The position numbers and the translations under genes were made by a program. Positions 3,182-16,753 of a DNA stretch of 22,720 nucleotides are shown in pieces (positions within the stretch are counted from its first letter, which is position 1; each line of letters begins with the position of its first letter). Origin of the DNA: a virus. The notes below the pieces were generated by a model. That model ran no database searches and was not told the DNA's origin. It saw only the letters and a program-made list of their open reading frames with translations. The DNA lies in the IMG/VR virus record IMGVR_UViG_3300035034_001226, positions 1 to 22,720 of that record. One strand, written 5' to 3'.

Positions 3182-5479
3182 TTATTCTGAACCCTTATAA
3201 AGATACTTCACAACTTGCGCTGGAATCATATCCCACATAGGACTCATTAATGTATTAAAGAACATCTGAGCTTCAACAAATCCTTCCATGTCACCACGTT
3301 TTAGGTTAGTCTTAATTTGCTCTAATGCATCTACAACATTACCCTTGATACTTTTATCATCATATCCTTTATTGTCATATCGATCAATAGCAGAATTAAG
3401 TTCCTTAATTCTTTTATCAATAGCCGACATAACATCAGATGGTGTTTTTACTTTAGTATCATTGCGAATGTCTTTACCTGTTCGTTCATCACTCTGGGCT
3501 TTATCATCAATTGCATCAAATGGCATATCAGCAGTAAATACAGTAGCATCGTCTGCCTTAGCTTCACCTAGTGACTTTTTATCATCTAATGCTTTCTTTA
3601 TAGCTACTTGTGCTGCTCTACTAGTATCCCATACTTTCTTATCATGTGAATATGCCTTTAATTTCTGCTTAAGTCTACTATTCTTTTCAGGTTCTATCAT
3701 CTTAGAATATATTCCATCTTCATCTGGGCCTTCAATCTTATCAGATTCATCAAGGGCTTCTTTCTTACCCTGCTGACGTTCTTTAGAATTCATAGCCTTC
3801 TTATTCTTATTATTCTCTGCCTGTGAAAGTGATGGAGTGATTTTAGTATCTCTTGAACGACCTTTAGCAGCCTCATCTACGTCAACTTCTTCAGTTTTCT
3901 TCTTTTGACTACGCTTGTGTAATTCAGTAGATGCATCATTTACTTGATCTAAATACTTAGCTTCAGCTTTATCATCCATACCCTTCATAGCCTTAGCAGC
4001 TTCACTGGCATCTTTCTGAATATACTTTAGCTCATCATCTGTCTTTTTACTATAGTCATTACCTTCTTCAACCAATTGACCTTCTAGTTTATCAATCTGT
4101 TCCTGAATATCACGGCGCTTTTCAGTTGAACCTGTCATTACTTTCTTCTTAGTTAATGCCTTTATTTCTTCCTTAATACTCTCATCGGTCTTCCAATGTG
4201 ATCCTGCACTAGACTCAACTTCACCTGATGCACCATCCCATTCACCGATTCCAGCCTTCTTACCTTCATCATTAACAAGCCATGCTTGTGCAATATCCTT
4301 ATCACCTTCGATACTGATTTTTCCTTGACCACCAAACTTCTTCTTAAGTGCTGCTTTCCATCCAGCATATGTTTGAATATTACCTTCTTCTATAGTAGAT
4401 TCTGTAATTTTAGATACACTAGAAGCCTTAACCATATCAACCTTACCGTCAACTTTGTCAGATATACCAATCATGTTTGCTTTAGCGTCTGGCACAACTA
4501 CTACCATTTCTTTACCATCACATTTTACTTTATCACCTTTAGAAAATTTACCATCAGTGTCAAATATTTTCTTCTGATCATCCTTAGATTCACCTAATTC
4601 TGCTGCTTTCCGAGGGTCAATTGATCCGTCACCACCTTTCATATAATCATATACTTTAGATTGTTCTACTGGATTTAGACGATCAATATATCGCTGAATA
4701 TCATCAGACTGTTCTGGTGTAATATCATCACCATAGTACTTAAGTACACTAATAATTGATGATGCATCATGCCCATCATCAGATTCACCATCTTCCATAG
4801 GCATGCCATCTGACATATCAGATTGTTCTGGCTTATCATTTAAATCATCATCTTTAGCTGCTAGATAATCTGATACCATATCCAGATAGTCAGATGCTTT
4901 AGTTATTTTAGAACTAACCCATGCTGGAAAGTCTGCATCATCTATACCCATATCTACAAGACGATCAATATTTGCTTTCATTGTAGATAACTGTGATGTA
5001 GCCATATCACCATCAGGATGATTGTCACCTTTATCAAAATCTAAAGGTGAAGTTTCACCTTCTTTATCAGTAACCGAAAAGTCATCATATCCATTATCAC
5101 GAAGAGTAGAAGTAACTGGCATCATAGCCATCATACTTTCAAGACGTAAGTTAATTGTTTCATCACCCTTCTTAGCATGTAGAATGTACTCATGTTCATA
5201 CTTAGTATCATCATATAGATCATGTACTTCAGATTCGGATAATACTTCTTTTGATCTAGCATCAATGAATTTACGAGTCTTCTCATTAAAAAGAACTACT
5301 CGTGTATTTTCCATAATAAATGGGCCTTCTAGTCCACTTTGATTAACATTATGATTATCCTTCTCCATATCATAATAGTTTTCATAGAGATTATCTATAA
5401 CCTCATCTATTTTTACCATACCTGATAATTGAAGTACTCTACGTATTTCATTTTTATTAACCTTACTTTTGATATCCAT
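3182..5479 (-). CDS. Large charged multi-module protein, probable internal head protein
   Basis: Track ORF 3182..5491. ATG at 5479 has GAGGA 6 nt upstream. D/E/K-rich, with many (I/L/V)-x-E motifs between short helical modules. Confidence 0.6.
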   Translation of the reverse strand: MDIKSKVNKNEIRRVLQLSGMVKIDEVIDNLYENYYDMEKDNHNVNQSGLEGPFIMENTRVVLFNEKTRKFIDARSKEVLSESEVHDLYDDTKYEHEYILHAKKGDETINLRLESMMAMMPVTSTLRDNGYDDFSVTDKEGETSPLDFDKGDNHPDGDMATSQLSTMKANIDRLVDMGIDDADFPAWVSSKITKASDYLDMVSDYLAAKDDDLNDKPEQSDMSDGMPMEDGESDDGHDASSIISVLKYYGDDITPEQSDDIQRYIDRLNPVEQSKVYDYMKGGDGSIDPRKAAELGESKDDQKKIFDTDGKFSKGDKVKCDGKEMVVVVPDAKANMIGISDKVDGKVDMVKASSVSKITESTIEEGNIQTYAGWKAALKKKFGGQGKISIEGDKDIAQAWLVNDEGKKAGIGEWDGASGEVESSAGSHWKTDESIKEEIKALTKKKVMTGSTEKRRDIQEQIDKLEGQLVEEGNDYSKKTDDELKYIQKDASEAAKAMKGMDDKAEAKYLDQVNDASTELHKRSQKKKTEEVDVDEAAKGRSRDTKITPSLSQAENNKNKKAMNSKERQQGKKEALDESDKIEGPDEDGIYSKMIEPEKNSRLKQKLKAYSHDKKVWDTSRAAQVAIKKALDDKKSLGEAKADDATVFTADMPFDAIDDKAQSDERTGKDIRNDTKVKTPSDVMSAIDKRIKELNSAIDRYDNKGYDDKSIKGNVVDALEQIKTNLKRGDMEGFVEAQMFFNTLMSPMWDMIPAQVVKYLYKGSE

Positions 5480-5500
5480 GTTATTCCTCATGCCTTTTTA

Positions 5501-5836
5501 TTATTTATTAGATGTACGCCATGAACCTTCTAATCCACGAGCGTTATACAATTCTGCTACAGAATGTGATATTAAATTGTTATACTGTGCCCATCTTGAT
5601 TTCAAAATAGGGGTTGGTTTTGGTACTTTTAGTGATGCGAAACTATTATCAAGTAAATCTAATGCACTTTCCCAATCTTTGTCTAAGTCCTTTGCACCGT
5701 TATTGATTTCTCTTTTAAGTGCGGCTATAGTATCGTTTGGGAACGGTGCTTCAGGATCGGTTTCCTTAAAAACTTTACGTTTCTCATTTTCTTTCTTATT
5801 TTCAGTTATTCCCATTATTTCGAATAATGTTCTCAT
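5501..5836 (-). CDS. Hypothetical protein, possible head-internal protein
   Basis: 111-aa ORF packed in the operon. N-terminus MRTLFEIMGITE resembles the cleaved pro-peptides of T4-like head proteins. Confidence 0.6.
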   Translation of the reverse strand: MRTLFEIMGITENKKENEKRKVFKETDPEAPFPNDTIAALKREINNGAKDLDKDWESALDLLDNSFASLKVPKPTPILKSRWAQYNNLISHSVAELYNARGLEGSWRTSNK

Positions 5837-5838
5837 TA

Positions 5839-6366
5839 TTAACTTCCATCGTCTATATCATAGACTCTATTCTTCAAATTCTCGAAATCCCCCTCTATTA
5901 CAGTAAAGGTTCTTTTGATTTCTACTTCTCTAATCTTTTCTTCATATGTCATTTCAGAAACAACTACACTAGGTGTTGGTTCTTCTAGAAGTTCGGCAGG
6001 TGTTTCCGAATTTGGTGGTCTGGGTGCTCCCAAAGGACCAACATCATTCTCTTCCTTAAAATCAACAATACGCTGCTGATCTTCTTTTGATATATCTCTA
6101 TATTTATCAATAACCTGTTCTCTTAGCTTATTACAGTCACGTAGTTGCAATATTGCTATACGATATGCTTTAGCTACTTCACCATCAACCTTAGCCTTTT
6201 CGCTATCTAAGACCTCTACGGCGTCTTCAGGGCAGTTTGTATCTGGTGGCATAGGTACGTTAGATATAGGTGTTAGTACGTCCTTATATACGTACTCTGT
6301 GCTTCCTTCCGGGCTTTTACATGATGTCATTAATAGAATTACTGAGATTATAACAAATATTTTCAT
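5839..6366 (-). CDS. rz1: Outer-membrane lipoprotein spanin (o-spanin, Rz1-like)
   Basis: Signal peptide with lipobox (MKIFVIISVILLMTS-C), Pro-rich segment PISNVPMPPDTNCP followed by a helix; ATGA overlap with the upstream i-spanin-like gene. Confidence 0.7.
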   Translation of the reverse strand: MKIFVIISVILLMTSCKSPEGSTEYVYKDVLTPISNVPMPPDTNCPEDAVEVLDSEKAKVDGEVAKAYRIAILQLRDCNKLREQVIDKYRDISKEDQQRIVDFKEENDVGPLGAPRPPNSETPAELLEEPTPSVVVSEMTYEEKIREVEIKRTFTVIEGDFENLKNRVYDIDDGS

Positions 6367-6770
6367 TTACCTATCCCCTTTCTTAGGAAATCCATTGCCT
6401 GTTTACAATTTTCAGGTGTGGGTTGGCTTTCAATTTCTGATACTTTAAGCTTGGTAACCTCTCTAAACATAGTGATGTTATCACTTAATAGTGATATAAT
6501 TTCACTTCTACTATCAGAATCATCTTTTAGATCAGCAATGCGTTCATTAGTCACGTCAATTTTAGAATTACATGCTAATACTTTACCTCTTTCCTTTTCA
6601 ATTAGAATTTCAAGTCTGCCAATTTCATTAGATTTTGTCTTAACATCATTTTCTAGACCATATATCTCAATCTTAAGAGCACCAACATATAAGGCAGCAA
6701 CTAGCGCAATTGCACCACCCGCCCAGAATTTTAATGGCACTGCCTTTAATACTGCAAATAGTGGTATCAT
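6363..6770 (-). CDS. rz: Inner-membrane spanin (i-spanin, Rz-like)
   Basis: Single N-terminal TM segment (WAGGAIALVAALYVGAL), long coiled coil, Cys near the C-terminus (PENC); directly upstream of the lipoprotein gene. Confidence 0.7.
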   Translation of the reverse strand: MIPLFAVLKAVPLKFWAGGAIALVAALYVGALKIEIYGLENDVKTKSNEIGRLEILIEKERGKVLACNSKIDVTNERIADLKDDSDSRSEIISLLSDNITMFREVTKLKVSEIESQPTPENCKQAMDFLRKGIGK

Positions 6771-7009
6771 CGTAAATTCCTAAAGCTTGCTTTAATATTA
6801 TTAACTTCTCTTTTAAGAGAATCTATTGAAACCTTAGCAGTTTTTAACTGTTTTTGTAATAGCCTATTATCTCTATACAAAACATCCAAAACATTTTTAT
6901 GCTTCTTAAGTTGCTTTTCATAATCATCAAGAACTCCCTTTTGATGAAGTTCTTGATCTTTAAGTTGCTTTTTTAGCCATTCGAGTTCTTTTTTAACATC
7001 AGGTTCCAT
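6767..7009 (-). CDS. Small coiled-coil protein
   Basis: 80-aa heptad-rich ORF; ATGA overlap with the i-spanin gene. Confidence 0.7.
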   Translation of the reverse strand: MEPDVKKELEWLKKQLKDQELHQKGVLDDYEKQLKKHKNVLDVLYRDNRLLQKQLKTAKVSIDSLKREVNNIKASFRNLR

Positions 7010-7584
7010 GCCTTATTTATCCTTTTATAAGTGGTAAGTGCGTTTCTTGCTAACTCATTTGACTTTTTACCCTTTTTAATTCCTAACTTAGATAATACAG
7101 AATCTTGATCAAATTTATTAATTGTGCCCATTGATAATGAAAATGTGTCAAAATTTCGAATTCCAAATCTAATACCCGATAATTCATATCGCTTAAATAA
7201 ATCCCTAAGAAATGGAAGGTGTAGGGTGGTGATATTATTACCCATGCAATACAATGGTTTTTTAATATCCATATTATTCATTATGAATTCCATTACATCA
7301 ACCAATGCATCTTCTTCAATTTCACCATGTTCCTCTAAGTATTCCTTAGATAGACCATGAATTTTTTCAGCACCAGCATCCCATTTAGATACACCATTCC
7401 ATTTGATTTCAACATACATCTCATCAATGACTTCATATGTTTCAACATCTGCAACAATTAAAGCAATAGATACGGGTTGGTAACCTTCTGCAATACTAAA
7501 ATCATTTTCACTGTAGGTAGATTTTCCATTAATACCACTAGTGTGACAGTGTACTACTAGTACTTTATTTAATTCAATTCCCAT
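6973..7584 (-). CDS. DnaQ/DEDD-fold exonuclease homolog with non-canonical (His) active site
   Basis: DnaQ-like pattern: VLVVHCHTSG (ExoI, normally DxETTG), SIALIV, AEKIHGLSKEYLEEHG, GNN..LHLPFL (ExoII, normally GHN..FD..FL), FDT. Confidence 0.75.
   Translation of the reverse strand: MGIELNKVLVVHCHTSGINGKSTYSENDFSIAEGYQPVSIALIVADVETYEVIDEMYVEIKWNGVSKWDAGAEKIHGLSKEYLEEHGEIEEDALVDVMEFIMNNMDIKKPLYCMGNNITTLHLPFLRDLFKRYELSGIRFGIRNFDTFSLSMGTINKFDQDSVLSKLGIKKGKKSNELARNALTTYKRINKAWNLMLKKNSNG
7014..7021 (-). promoter_or_regulatory. Possible late promoter (GATAAATA) for the spanin/head operon
   Basis: 7/8 match located inside the end of the exonuclease gene, 4 nt before ATG 7009, at the switch from DNA-metabolism genes to late genes. 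Confidence 0.35.
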
Positions 7585-8146
7585 TCGTCATAATCTCCGA
7601 TAATTGATCTATTCTTTCTTCTAAGTCTGGCATATCTATTAGTATTACTCCACCATCAGTAAATTCATCAGAGAATCTACGTATAGCAGAATCAACCAAA
7701 ATAGAAAAATCTTGATTGGTTGATCTAACACCATCACCTTCAGGCGTATAAACCCTACCAGACAGATATATTACGCGGTCAAATAATAAATTTTGAGCAC
7801 GTATACACCTTTCCTTATAACCACATAGCCATTCCGAATATTCATTAAATGGTCCAAGAGCAACAAGAGCATATGCATATACATCCGCAAATGTTCGCTC
7901 TACCATATTTTTTTTATTATGATCCAGTGTTGATATGTTCATCATGTGTCCAATAAAAAACTTTTCTTGGAATTCTTTTTTAAGTTCTTTATTCGAATTA
8001 ATGTCATCTAATGTAAAATTTTCAGCCGCCAATACATTACGGGCGGTTTGTATATCAGCCGCTATAAAATCTGGATTTGTATTAGCTACTTCTTTTATAA
8101 GTGTGGATTTCCCCTGACCTTGGGAACCTGATATACCAACTATCAT
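7574..8146 (-). CDS. P-loop NTPase / nucleotide kinase-like protein (AAA_28/dNMP-kinase-like)
   Basis: N-terminal Walker A GSQGQGKST; ERTFADVYAY motif; DGVR lid-like motif. Confidence 0.75.
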   Translation of the reverse strand: MIVGISGSQGQGKSTLIKEVANTNPDFIAADIQTARNVLAAENFTLDDINSNKELKKEFQEKFFIGHMMNISTLDHNKKNMVERTFADVYAYALVALGPFNEYSEWLCGYKERCIRAQNLLFDRVIYLSGRVYTPEGDGVRSTNQDFSILVDSAIRRFSDEFTDGGVILIDMPDLEERIDQLSEIMTNGN

Positions 8147-8568
8147 TTAGATTCACCATTTACAATCTGGAAATCATTCTCATCAATTTCAAATTCATGA
8201 TCGTCTATTTTGAAATCATCATCTGGTGGGGTTAATGGAATATTATTCTCTACCATTATAGATTCTAAGTTTTTAAGACGGTTTACTTCATCTAACCACT
8301 TGGCTCTAGCCTTTTTAAACTTTCTGTTATATAAATCTCTTTTTGCAGAAGTTTTTGCACCTTCCCGTTGTTCATGGTATCGTAATGCTTCAGCACCATA
8401 TTGTGTTGACAAGTTCAGAGTTAAAGTGTATAAATGGCGAAATTGATTAGCTTCGAATGCGGGTACTTCACCTTCTTCTAATGCCTCTTCTATTATTTTA
8501 AGATCATTATAATCTTCTTCAGATTTTGCAATCTCATCATTATTATTATTATTTTCATCATCGGTCAT
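8143..8568 (-). CDS. Hypothetical protein
   Basis: 141-aa ORF with GAGGA SD; first gene after a sigma70-type promoter; ATGA overlap with the kinase gene. Confidence 0.75.
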   Translation of the reverse strand: MTDDENNNNNDEIAKSEEDYNDLKIIEEALEEGEVPAFEANQFRHLYTLTLNLSTQYGAEALRYHEQREGAKTSAKRDLYNRKFKKARAKWLDEVNRLKNLESIMVENNIPLTPPDDDFKIDDHEFEIDENDFQIVNGESK

Positions 8569-8624: not shown

Positions 8625-9353
8625 TTAATTTGGCAATCCTGTTATAGCTAGATATTGAACATTGCCTATTGTGGTTATAACAGATTCCTGCGTTCCATCT
8701 TCAGAAAAGTTCTTAGTTGGATCAATATCAGTCCCAGCCAAAATATTTTTACGAATATTAGCTTCATCTGCATATCTCTTACCAACACTATACATCCATA
8801 CTTCAGTATAAGTTTCATCCGGTTCTTCAACTTTCCTTACTAAATATGCACCCTTTATAGCTCGTATGTTACCAGCATAATTTTTATCACTATCATCAGA
8901 CTCTTCATCACCATCAAATTCATCGTCACCCTCTTCAGATTCGCCACCAGCATCATCATCACCAGCATTCATAATATCAGATACATCATTAATATAATCA
9001 TCGTCATCAGCATCAAATTCATCATCGTCGAATTCATCATCCAAATCACGCATAAATGCCCATCCAGCGTCTGCATCAATATCGTCGATATCATCCTCAT
9101 CATTAAATTCATTTCTACGATACGAACGATCATTATAACCTAAGTGAAAATCATCCTCATCTTTATCTTTACCAAAGGTTTCATATCCATCTTTGTAGTC
9201 TGAATCGTGAGATTTTTGGGTTTTCATTCGGACTTTCATCGCTAGGTCATCACCACTGAAGAATGGGTTCTTATTAGAATTTTGATTAAATGTATCTTTA
9301 TTGCCAGCCACTCTAATTTTCTTCACCAGTTCTTGCAATCTTTTATTTGTCAT
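8625..9353 (-). CDS. Acidic late protein with globular C-terminal domain (probable virion/assembly protein)
   Basis: Track ORF 8625..9389; start moved to ATG 9353 (MTNKRLQEL) because a late promoter lies at 9377-9384. Long Asp-rich centre, then NIRAIKGAYLVRK...EVWMY domain. Confidence 0.7.
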   Translation of the reverse strand: MTNKRLQELVKKIRVAGNKDTFNQNSNKNPFFSGDDLAMKVRMKTQKSHDSDYKDGYETFGKDKDEDDFHLGYNDRSYRRNEFNDEDDIDDIDADAGWAFMRDLDDEFDDDEFDADDDDYINDVSDIMNAGDDDAGGESEEGDDEFDGDEESDDSDKNYAGNIRAIKGAYLVRKVEEPDETYTEVWMYSVGKRYADEANIRKNILAGTDIDPTKNFSEDGTQESVITTIGNVQYLAITGLPN

Positions 9354-9376
9354 AATGGGTTCTCTTAATTTAATAG

Positions 9377-9384
9377 TATTTATA
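9377..9384 (-). promoter_or_regulatory. T4-type late promoter TATAAATA
   Basis: Perfect consensus 23 nt upstream of ATG 9353. Confidence 0.7.
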
Positions 9385-9391
9385 TACAAAA

Positions 9392-10265: not shown

Positions 10266-10608
10266 TATACTTATAATTCTCGATAGTTGTCCATTCACCT
10301 TTATCATTTTGAAATCTTCCGATTAATTCCTGACCACGATCTGTTAGTTCATTTGAATCATCTATAAGGTTTTGTGAACGTAATATATCACTACCAGTAT
10401 TAGTCAGGGTAGCTGTACGGGTACTATCATTAACTCTAATGAATCCATTCTGCTCCAATTTCTTACGTGCGGTTACCGCATTCCTAGCACCTGTAGCTAC
10501 ACTATAGGCCAATTCTGGTGAAGATGATACGTGCATTAATACAATTATAGCCTTATCGGTATTATCTAATTCTAAACGCTCGGTTAGTATTTCTTTAAGT
10601 GATTTCAT
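10249..10608 (-). CDS. Winged-helix-like protein with pro-peptide-like N-terminus
   Basis: Track ORF 10249..10623; likely start MKSLKEILTE at 10608. L..NGFI...ATLTNTG and NLI...ELTDRG are wHTH wing signatures. Confidence 0.55.
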   Translation of the reverse strand: MKSLKEILTERLELDNTDKAIIVLMHVSSSPELAYSVATGARNAVTARKKLEQNGFIRVNDSTRTATLTNTGSDILRSQNLIDDSNELTDRGQELIGRFQNDKGEWTTIENYKYIKTLL

Positions 10609-11173
10609 ATTTACCCATTTCAATTAAGTGAAGTTGAAGAACTATTAATATGGCGTATGGGATAGCATGAGCTTTTCTCATATCTTCTGGCATCCGCTTT
10701 GTGTATAACTCTACCCTATATTTATCTGGGTCTTCCATATATTTATACAATAATGGACGTTTGTTGGGACGAATTAATGCAAACACATCTGCAAGCTCCA
10801 ATATTGAACGTGGTTTAACTATAGAAATTATATCAAAATGATTACCCAAATGGAATAAATTCTTAACAACATTTTCATCATTTAGTAAATCCCAATCAGG
10901 TTCAATATCTTGCAATTCCCTCATTTGTTCCTTAGATTCGAATTTATCAAGAAGATGTACAGGTAAAAAATCAATCTTATAATATCCCATATCTTCAGTT
11001 TTCTTATATGGTATTGCTGATAATCCAGTAACATTATCCACTGGTATATCTTGAAAATAATATCCAACAATATGTTTCATCAACTTTCCATCGGTTACCA
11101 TAGATGCTGAAACTAGATTATTAAAAACCGTATCAATCTCTAAGTTTGGGGGTATGTCTATATCAATGTCCAT
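10595..11173 (-). CDS. dnaE: DNA polymerase III alpha (DnaE)-like protein, C-terminal catalytic fragment
   Basis: MDIDID (= PDxDxD), KHIVGYY (= HAGGVVI), GYYKIDFL (= GLVKFDFL), KPRSILELADVFALIRP (= LQPDCFEDMIALVALFRP), KAHAIPYA (= KSHSAAYA), all in DnaE order. Confidence 0.85.
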   Translation of the reverse strand: MDIDIDIPPNLEIDTVFNNLVSASMVTDGKLMKHIVGYYFQDIPVDNVTGLSAIPYKKTEDMGYYKIDFLPVHLLDKFESKEQMRELQDIEPDWDLLNDENVVKNLFHLGNHFDIISIVKPRSILELADVFALIRPNKRPLLYKYMEDPDKYRVELYTKRMPEDMRKAHAIPYAILIVLQLHLIEMGKYEIT

Positions 11174-16151: not shown

Positions 16152-16718
16152 TTAGCGGAAAAATTCACCTATATCTAGTTCATATTTAACACTATCAACT
16201 TGGTGTAAGCCTATTAAATATAATATATAACTTGCACATGCACTACCTCTGCCTGTACCCCAAACTATATTCTTATCTCGAAAGGTTTCAACAACGTAAA
16301 TCATCGTCCGTAACATATCTAATTGACCCCTTTCGGTCCACACTCTAAGTTCCATTTTCATTCTAAAAAATCTAACTTCTAAATCTTTCCCTTTAAGTGA
16401 ATATCGCTTTATTTCACTTAACATACACTTGTTAACATACTCTACAACATCAAGTTCCTTATATTTTTCAGGAATAACCCATTCAGTTCTTATATCTTTT
16501 ATGTCTTTTTTAAAACCAATACTATGTTTTGGGAAATTTTCATTGTATTTCTGAACTTCTTCAGATTCGTATAACTCTTTTGATAAATGCATATTATAAA
16601 TTTTCTTACACTTTAATATTTCATCGTATAAAAAATCTATATCAACAACAGAATCACCATCTTTAAATAATATTCTATCATTCAATTTCACATAATCATC
16701 TTCAGTTATATTGGCCAT
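16152..16718 (-). CDS. dnaE: DNA polymerase III alpha (DnaE)-like protein, N-terminal fragment
   Basis: R..MEL...IVWGTGRGSACASYILYLIGLHQVDSVKYEL...F matches DnaE RL..EL...[33 protein letters not shown]. ATG 16718 (MANITE) is preferred to the track start at 16736. Confidence 0.85.
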   Translation of the reverse strand: MANITEDDYVKLNDRILFKDGDSVVDIDFLYDEILKCKKIYNMHLSKELYESEEVQKYNENFPKHSIGFKKDIKDIRTEWVIPEKYKELDVVEYVNKCMLSEIKRYSLKGKDLEVRFFRMKMELRVWTERGQLDMLRTMIYVVETFRDKNIVWGTGRGSACASYILYLIGLHQVDSVKYELDIGEFFR

Positions 16719-16724
16719 TTTACC

Positions 16725-16753
16725 ATTATAACACAATTTACTTATTAATTAAA
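16725..16753 (-). promoter_or_regulatory. Extended -10 sigma70-type promoter
   Basis: TGTGTTATAAT (TATAAT at 16730-16725) with a weak -35 TTTAAT at 17-bp spacing; ATG follows 6 nt after the -10. Confidence 0.6.

Follow-up and report, generated by a model that had tools for sequence, protein, structure and literature searches.

A DnaQ-fold protein of a jumbo phage with histidines in place of the DEDDh carboxylates, a state that appears to have arisen at least twice

We have analysed P0001, a gene on the minus strand of a 22,720-nt stretch of viral DNA (positions 1 to 22,720 of the IMG/VR record IMGVR_UViG_3300035034_001226; hereafter the window). Its 203-amino-acid (aa) product is predicted to fold like a DnaQ-type exonuclease of the DEDDh family, and in our alignments the places of the three metal-binding carboxylates, the Asp and the Glu of ExoI and the Asp of ExoII, are taken by His12, His14 and His122. 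The same triad is found in a second, distantly related clade, and our trees indicate that the switch from D/E/D to H/H/H has occurred at least twice. Because the state is both recurrent and maintained, we consider the triad of P0001 likely to be a selected, rebuilt site and not the product of decay. The window is the first part of a 105 kb record, and since this record is estimated to be 30% complete we take its source to be a jumbo phage.

The AlphaFold2 model of P0001, made with 23 sequences, has a mean predicted local distance difference test score (pLDDT) of 93.1 and the canonical topology, with strand β-1 at residues 7–15, the ExoII helix at 118–132 and the ExoIII helix at 175–201. The protein ends about 20 residues past the ExoIII helix. 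Foldseek matches the model to RNase T, Pol III epsilon, oligoribonuclease, the N-terminal exonuclease of DinG and Cap18 with a probability of 1.0 and template modelling (TM) scores of up to 0.76 (RNase T 3v9u, 0.76; epsilon 2gui, 0.69/0.78). The model therefore agrees with the DnaQ-like fold that the original prediction, a reading of the DNA letters alone, had proposed, and we assign the DnaQ/DEDDh (RNase H-like) fold to P0001 with high confidence. A homolog search of 5.8 billion proteins returned 22 homologs of 33–56% identity, covering 72–99% of P0001 (at least 92% in 19 of them). PHROG phrog_192, 'DNA polymerase exonuclease subunit', matches P0001 with an E-value of 2.5e-11; the Pfam family PF00929 (RNase_T), present in 20 of the 22 homologs, gave no match to P0001 even at E <= 1, nor to anything else in the 105 kb record. 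Against the Protein Data Bank, the family profile has its best match in Cap18 (7t2s, E 1e-10), with weaker ones to the PolC exonuclease domain, RNase T, DnaQ and oligoribonuclease; in the Cap18 alignment ExoII and ExoIII correspond residue for residue and significantly, and ExoI falls on VDVETSG below significance (-2.0 bits). Full-length homology and a conserved position make P0001 a member of a family of stand-alone, kinase-linked DnaQ-like phage proteins (phrog_192, like ORF223 of phage XacN1). An identity as the Pol III epsilon subunit itself (dnaQ) is not supported: NCBIfam NF005927 gives 17.5 bits where the cut-off is 186, the DEDDh orthologue P0003 itself scores no higher than 39 bits, and P0001, ending so soon after the ExoIII helix, does not show the C-terminal extension that binds alpha or the clamp. 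A HIT nucleotide hydrolase was rejected, as P0001 has only H-C-H-T-S, the DnaQ fold and no HIT match in Pfam.

All 22 homologs carry D-C-E-T-S-G, G-H-N-x-x-x-F-D and H-N-x-L-x-D-A (alignment A1), to which P0001 is the sole exception, and the DEDDh motifs are likewise present in all 12 IMG/VR loci and in XacN1 ORF223. In the DNA of the window the ExoI codons read gta CAC tgt CAC act agt ggt (V-H-C-H-T-S-G; H12 at 7551-7549, H14 at 7545-7543) and the ExoII codons cta CAC ctt (L-H122-L; H122 at 7221-7219). The original prediction had named exactly these residues and coordinates and had placed them at the ExoI D, ExoI E and ExoII D positions; the DNA, the 22-homolog alignment and the family profile bear this out. 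It had further seen no recognisable ExoIII H-x4-D, and in A1 Ser175 stands at the ExoIII His column, with an in-frame 2-codon deletion spanning the Asp column, so that S-N-E-L, a 2-residue gap and A-R are found opposite the H-N-x-L-x-D-A of the homologs. All five DEDDh catalytic residues are in this way substituted or deleted (D12H, E14H, D122H, ExoIII His to Ser, ExoIII Asp deleted). P0001 has the fold of a DEDDh exonuclease and lacks the ExoI D-x-E, the ExoII Asp and the ExoIII H-x4-D. Because none of the five remains, the alignment excludes for P0001 the classical two-Mg2+ DEDDh mechanism with its ExoIII general base.

The rest of the protein is better kept. HGL, PFL and FDT are unaltered, as had been noted from the sequence; GNN, listed with them as intact, is itself a departure from the family's GHN. 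The pocket residues T15-S16-G17, H76-G77-L, N117 and D146 are retained. P0001 keeps 38 of the 49 near-invariant family columns and differs at the other 11, whereas its close orthologues differ at 0–2 of about 50 (one at 4). The catalytic columns have changed in five cases out of five, the other near-invariant columns in six out of 44 (Fisher p = 2.4e-4), and by this comparison the change in P0001 is concentrated on the active site. All three triad histidines are encoded by CAC and the remaining two, H76 and H86, by CAT, as the original prediction had pointed out; with a genome-wide CAT:CAC ratio of 340:106, three CAC codons have p ~0.013 assuming independence, and the usage appears real but is a weak signal.

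An identical protein is encoded on three more assemblies (ENA ERZ27315366, a 60.8 kb contig; Logan SRR7141805; JGI 3300023049), whose DNA is at least 99.9% identical to the window. The single difference within the gene, C versus T on the coding strand at window position 7405 (gene nt 180, Ile60), is synonymous, and because of it the four assemblies, which are of different source, are not copies of one assembly. The P0001 sequence is genuine and not an artefact, and the gene is alive, with an intact open reading frame (ORF) and its overlaps with both neighbours kept. The allele belongs to a nearly clonal population.

With HMMER we searched 1.84 billion representatives exhaustively and obtained 140 relatives. 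When the catalytic columns were mapped in 146 alignable rows, 118 were D-E-D, and the H-H-H state was found in P0062, P0066, P0078, P0081, P0100 and P0107. Starting from P0062, a further search brought in nine others (P0163–P0171), down to 54% identity, so that this metagenomic group, which we call the old His clade, has 15 diverse members. Every one of the 14 sequences of alignment A4 has H12, H14 and the ExoII His, as does P0107 (A3); the motifs read H-C-H-T-T-G for ExoI and G-Y-N-x-x-S-F-H for ExoII, ExoIII is replaced by P-L-S-S-L, and residue 41 is Ala or Ser. By these alignments the triad has persisted through deep divergence. The P0062 model has a pLDDT of 93.2 and finds its best match in E. 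coli epsilon (TM score 0.73/0.79); the atlas look-alikes of P0062 are ordinary viral RNase_T clusters, and for the clade we found neither a Pfam family nor a sequence-related solved structure. P0001 and the old His clade have the three histidines at the same positions, the loss of ExoIII and the genomic slot in common; they differ in being only 26–37% identical and in the Tyr116 and Phe121 of the clade.

Two members of the old His clade lie in complete phage genomes, one of 340 kb with terminal repeats and one of 350 kb. In both, the His-triad gene is the sole member of the P0001/DEDDh family, and both encode elsewhere a true oligoribonuclease (L029, G002:199167-199691; L030, G001:312694-313227) that matches NF003765 with 171 bits and has its DEDDh residues intact. 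Five DEDDh-bearing relatives, whose genomes are incomplete, showed no such second RNase_T gene. In the old-clade loci the gene sits in the same syntenic slot as P0001, flanked by homologs of the window proteins at 8625-9389, 5501-5836 and 3182-5491, and there is no kinase gene upstream. The place of the kinase is occupied by an ORF of 82–87 aa that overlaps the start of the His-triad gene (L014 1296-1544, L018 1814-2077, L015 47-295).

P0001 belongs with these proteins by state (H-x-H...H, no ExoIII His or Asp) and not by descent. We built trees from which the three motif regions had been removed, one of 146 rows and a careful one of 57. In both, P0001 is sister to the DEDDh protein P0002 (support 97 to 98/97) within a 17-row clade that is entirely DEDDh (96/97), and the old His clade is monophyletic elsewhere (100/99). 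Constraining P0001 and the old His clade into one clade costs 27 log-likelihood units (approximately unbiased test, p = 0.014). The flanking genes agree with this: the 111-aa protein encoded near P0001 is 69% identical to its counterparts in loci L002–L004 and 41–46% identical to those of the old-clade loci. The triad codons are CAT in four of the five old-clade genes examined (in L027 they too are CAC), and the corresponding codons of P0002 are GAC, GAG and GAT. In sliding windows, protein identity favours the DEDDh orthologues throughout, except for a tie at residues 1–30. Gene conversion from a phage of the old His clade was considered and rejected, since DNA identity over the ExoI region (21–29 of 42) is no better than to the DEDDh orthologues. 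P0001 nevertheless has the old-clade state at five of the 15 columns that discriminate the two groups (H12, H14, A41, H122 and K187), where the 14 closest DEDDh orthologues have it at 0–1; besides the triad, the change G41A has taken place in parallel and is shared convergently with the old clade. DEDDh is taken as the ancestral state because all cellular relatives carry it, and on these trees the D/E/D to H/H/H switch is placed at least twice. That H/H/H should co-occur as a clade among the homologs was the check originally proposed; it does, but in another clade, the nearest relatives of P0001 being all DEDDh. The accompanying argument, that random decay would hardly give three histidines, is much strengthened by the independent clade with the same invariant triad, of which that of P0001 is a convergent second origin.

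The family also contains other states that depart from DEDD. A clade with the pattern H-E-[T/V/A/S]...K (support 99) comprises P0097, P0098, P0108, P0120, P0121, P0123, P0145, P0148 and P0152, with L034 as its locus. It has His at the ExoI Asp position and keeps the Glu of ExoI in eight of the nine (Asp in P0145), the ExoII Asp has become T, V, A or S, and Lys is found at the position of the ExoIII Asp; its genes share the syntenic slot and are preceded by a kinase-like gene. An S-E-A group consists of P0053, P0077 and P0087, and P0053 lies between DHFR-region genes and a phosphoribosyltransferase (L035). By alignment, this phage family has lost DEDDh residues repeatedly.

What could a rebuilt site do? 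The original prediction had suggested a Zn/Fe/Ni/Mn site, new chemistry, an end-binder or, possibly, an anti-defence sponge. In our proposal the three imidazoles, those of H12 and H14 at positions i and i+2 on strand β-1 and that of H122 in the N-terminal part of the ExoII helix, would fill the place of metals A and B and coordinate a single transition metal (Zn2+, Mn2+, Fe2+ or Ni2+), and the otherwise preserved pocket for 3′ ends or nucleotides would stay in use. The protein would then be either a single-metal hydrolase with a changed metal dependence or a protein that binds 3′ ends or nucleotides tightly and does not hydrolyse them. To the presence of one such ion in the old site, serving one or the other of these ends, we give about even chances, and we lean slightly towards a metal-bearing site that may still engage the 3′ ends of nucleic acids. 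A bolder version, which we put forward tentatively and would not bet on, is that the H-x-H...H proteins form a new catalytic class within the DnaQ/RNase H-like fold, evolved at least twice by jumbo phages from a DEDDh exonuclease, that would use a His3-bound metal and no ExoIII base for phosphoryl transfer or hydrolysis on 3′ ends, dinucleotides or signalling nucleotides, P0001 being a young and still DEDDh-like intermediate. As for the ancestral DEDDh enzyme, it could be that it produced deoxynucleoside monophosphates (dNMPs) for the adjacent kinase or proofread in trans for a split Pol III.

Several observations weigh against a metal-bearing, selected site. The one line of support for the putative His3 site is the homology of its positions to the DEDDh metal ligands. 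The old-clade Tyr116 and Phe121 are missing from P0001, which has Asn and Leu there. Its terminal branch measures 0.44–0.50, against ~0.28 in its sister (~1.6–1.8 times as long), which is compatible with relaxed constraint; the young version of the triad is seen in one lineage only, that of the four near-identical assemblies; and the other 'dead' states of the family (H-E-[T/V/A/S]...K and S-E-A) show that loss of catalysis with the fold kept is tolerated.

The last of these points leads to the main alternative, that of a metal-free pseudo-exonuclease, in which catalysis was lost and the fold was kept as a scaffold or partner in replication or nucleotide metabolism, or as a binder of 3′ ends, oligonucleotides or nucleotides; the histidines would be the best-tolerated substitutes, neutral and able to form hydrogen bonds, for carboxylates that repel each other without Mg2+. 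Such an origin is possible, though we find it rather doubtful. It would accommodate the several independent non-DEDD states found in the same family and the same slot (the H-E-x...K clade, L034), the recurrence of His12 in the H-E clade, where Glu14 is kept, and the retention of the pocket residues HGL, N117 and TSG; furthermore, in the complete genomes of the old clade exonuclease activity may come from another gene, the genuine oligoribonuclease (L029). It leaves unexplained, however, why exactly three histidines, and nothing else, should be invariant in a clade that diverges to about 30% identity and then reappear jointly in a second lineage, H-x-H with a distal His is a classic metal-ligand pattern, and no partner has been identified.

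If instead the P0001 gene had lately been inactivated and were in the course of being lost, the three histidines would be a coincidence of neutral drift. The singleton status of this version, with 22 of 22 nearest homologs being DEDDh, a terminal branch somewhat longer than that of the sister and CAC codons that have not yet shifted to the CAT preference of the genome, which suggests a young change, are all in keeping with this, yet we judge it quite improbable: the ORF is full-length with both overlaps kept, 38 of 49 near-invariant columns survive and the changes focus on the catalytic positions, E14 to His takes two base changes, the lone DNA difference among the genes of the four assemblies is synonymous, and the triad, the loss of ExoIII and G41A recur together in a clade that conserves them. 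An error of sequencing or assembly at the three codons has practically no chance of being the explanation, given that the same protein is found in four assemblies of different source with one synonymous difference, and that the changes are not isolated, 11 conserved columns being different and two codons deleted in frame. A selected, rebuilt site in P0001 thus stays our preferred interpretation.

How does this compare with known systems? P0001 shares with the DEDDh exonucleases (E. coli Pol III epsilon, RNase T, oligoribonuclease and the Cap18 nuclease 7t2s of the CBASS defence system) the fold and topology, the T-S-G loop, the HG[LI] motif, the ExoII Asn and the 'D-T' motif, and unlike them it has none of D-E-D-H-D. 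Within its own family, XacN1 ORF223, annotated by similarity as 'DNA polymerase III epsilon subunit', is 38% identical (E 3e-31) and differs in having D-C-E, H-N...F-D and H-N-A-L-E-D intact. ORF223 and its neighbour ORF224 have counterparts in Xoo-sp13, Stenotrophomonas phages CM1 and RAS14 and Ralstonia phage RsoM2USA; among the cultured phages of the searched collection the His-triad form was not found. An 'active site switch' within the DnaQ-H fold has been described for the MAEL (Maelstrom) domain, from DEDHD to EHHCHC/ECHC (Zhang et al. 2008, PMC2628886; reviewed in PMC7968707). By analogy this is the closest conceptual precedent, as MAEL too has the DnaQ-H fold without the DEDDh residues and has acquired a His/Cys set for which zinc binding is proposed or shown, along with a changed function. 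MAEL is, in contrast, eukaryotic and its set includes Cys and Glu, whereas in P0001 the histidines replace the carboxylates one for one. As far as is known, the new residues of MAEL lie at positions other than the old catalytic ones. In carbonic anhydrase II the zinc site His94-x-His96...His119 is an H-x-H...H mononuclear metal pattern; it resembles P0001 in having two histidines at i and i+2 on a β-strand plus a third, the folds being unrelated. The 'histidine triad' of the HIT proteins is an H-x-H-x-H motif of three alternating histidines on one strand, together with the HIT fold, and both are absent from P0001. In the literature searched we did not find a DnaQ fold with His in place of its carboxylates described.

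The fold and the family are already known; what is new is the His-for-carboxylate variant, a one-for-one replacement of every carboxylate in a two-metal nuclease site that is conserved in one clade and seems to have been reinvented in a second. Should the site hold a transition metal, a two-Mg2+ centre of RNase H-like type would have been rebuilt into a different metal centre with the fold unchanged, and the proteins would define an unannotated jumbo-phage family. If it is metal-free, it would be a clean natural case of repeated pseudo-enzyme formation at a fixed position, with a dNMP kinase and a minimal, split Pol III as neighbours. P0001 is useful either way, since at 52–56% identity to active-looking orthologues the switch can be dissected with few substitutions.

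Table 1. Positions in the window of the His-triad gene, its motifs and the neighbouring genes discussed in the text
Feature	Position	Strand	Remarks
His-triad DnaQ-fold gene (P0001), 203 aa	6973..7584	(-)	H12/H14/H122 where the DEDDh family has D/E/D
ExoI site H12-C13-H14 (CAC TGT CAC)	7543..7551	(-)	Family: D-C-E
A41 (family Gly; strand β-2)	7462..7464	(-)	Fourth substitution convergent with the old His-triad clade
ExoII motif G115-N-N-I-T-T-L-H122-L-P-F-L	7207..7242	(-)	Family: G-H-N-x-x-x-F-D-x-P-F-L (H116N, F121L, D122H)
ExoIII remnant S175-N-E-L-A-R-N181	7042..7062	(-)	General-base His replaced by Ser; metal-ligand Asp gone through 2-residue deletion
P-loop kinase-like gene, 190 aa	7574..8146	(-)	Upstream; stop overlaps the His-DnaQ start by 11 nt; AAA_28, phrog_2107 thymidylate kinase
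80-aa coiled-coil ORF	6767..7009	(-)	Downstream; overlaps the 3′ end of the His-DnaQ gene by 37 nt; first of the conserved downstream block
Transmembrane and coiled-coil protein	6363..6770	(-)	N-terminal transmembrane segment; conserved downstream block
Lipoprotein-like protein (MKIFVIISVILLMTSC...)	5839..6366	(-)	Conserved downstream block
Pol III alpha palm piece	16152-16736	(-)	PF07733, 36 bits, above cut-off
Second Pol III alpha piece	10595-11173	(-)	phrog_11778 'DNA polymerase'; homolog in L034 with a faint DNA_pol3_finger match

The positions of the genes around P0001 are given in Table 1. The gene order is conserved in the loci L002, L003, L004, L005 and L013, and runs from an acidic 254-aa protein, a 141-aa protein and the P-loop kinase to the DnaQ-like gene, followed by the coiled-coil ORF, the transmembrane and coiled-coil protein, the lipoprotein-like protein, a 111-aa protein and a large protein. 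The adjacency of kinase and DnaQ-like gene is kept in L002–L005, L013 and L034, and in XacN1 ORF224, annotated as a deoxynucleoside monophosphate kinase, is followed by ORF223 with the ends overlapping, as in the window. By homology and gene order, P0001 is the positional orthologue of the stand-alone DEDDh exonuclease of XacN1-like jumbo phages and not a stray paralogue; a second DEDDh paralogue was not found in the 105 kb record, which holds ~30% of the genome. The motifs of the upstream kinase are intact (P-loop, ERTFAD, DGVRS), and a predicted complex of this kinase with P0001 scored 0.00–0.01, which speaks neither for nor against binding.

Apart from these genes the window forms a replication block that encodes SSB, UvsX-like and UvsY-like proteins, a helicase and clamp-loader subunits. 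PADLOC gave for P0001 only generic exonuclease/DEDDh matches (E 1e-4 to 3e-3). The context of P0001 is one of replication and nucleotide metabolism and not a counter-defence locus, with nothing in it specific to anti-defence; an anti-defence role is by this neither favoured nor excluded. A split, 'minimal' Pol III alpha has been described for the group 2.2 jumbo phages (Iyer et al. 2021, PMC7824862), and the two Pol III alpha ORFs of the window fit this description; a PHP domain was not found in the 105 kb record.

Some features of the neighbouring genes may be added. The 769-aa protein encoded at 3182-5491 (-) gave no match in Pfam or PHROG; its N- and C-terminal parts are conserved in related loci, those of the old His clade matching it only over the C-terminal ~100 aa. 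Upstream of the kinase lie genes for two strongly acidic proteins with long D/E runs, at 8625-9389 (-) and 8143-8568 (-), and the first of these has its C-terminal ~100 aa conserved across every related locus, those of the old His clade among them. Finally, the proteins at 6363-6770 and 5839-6366 resemble an i-spanin/o-spanin pair, though they lie inside a replication block, and L004, L013 and L016 have both of them, likewise downstream of the DnaQ-like gene.

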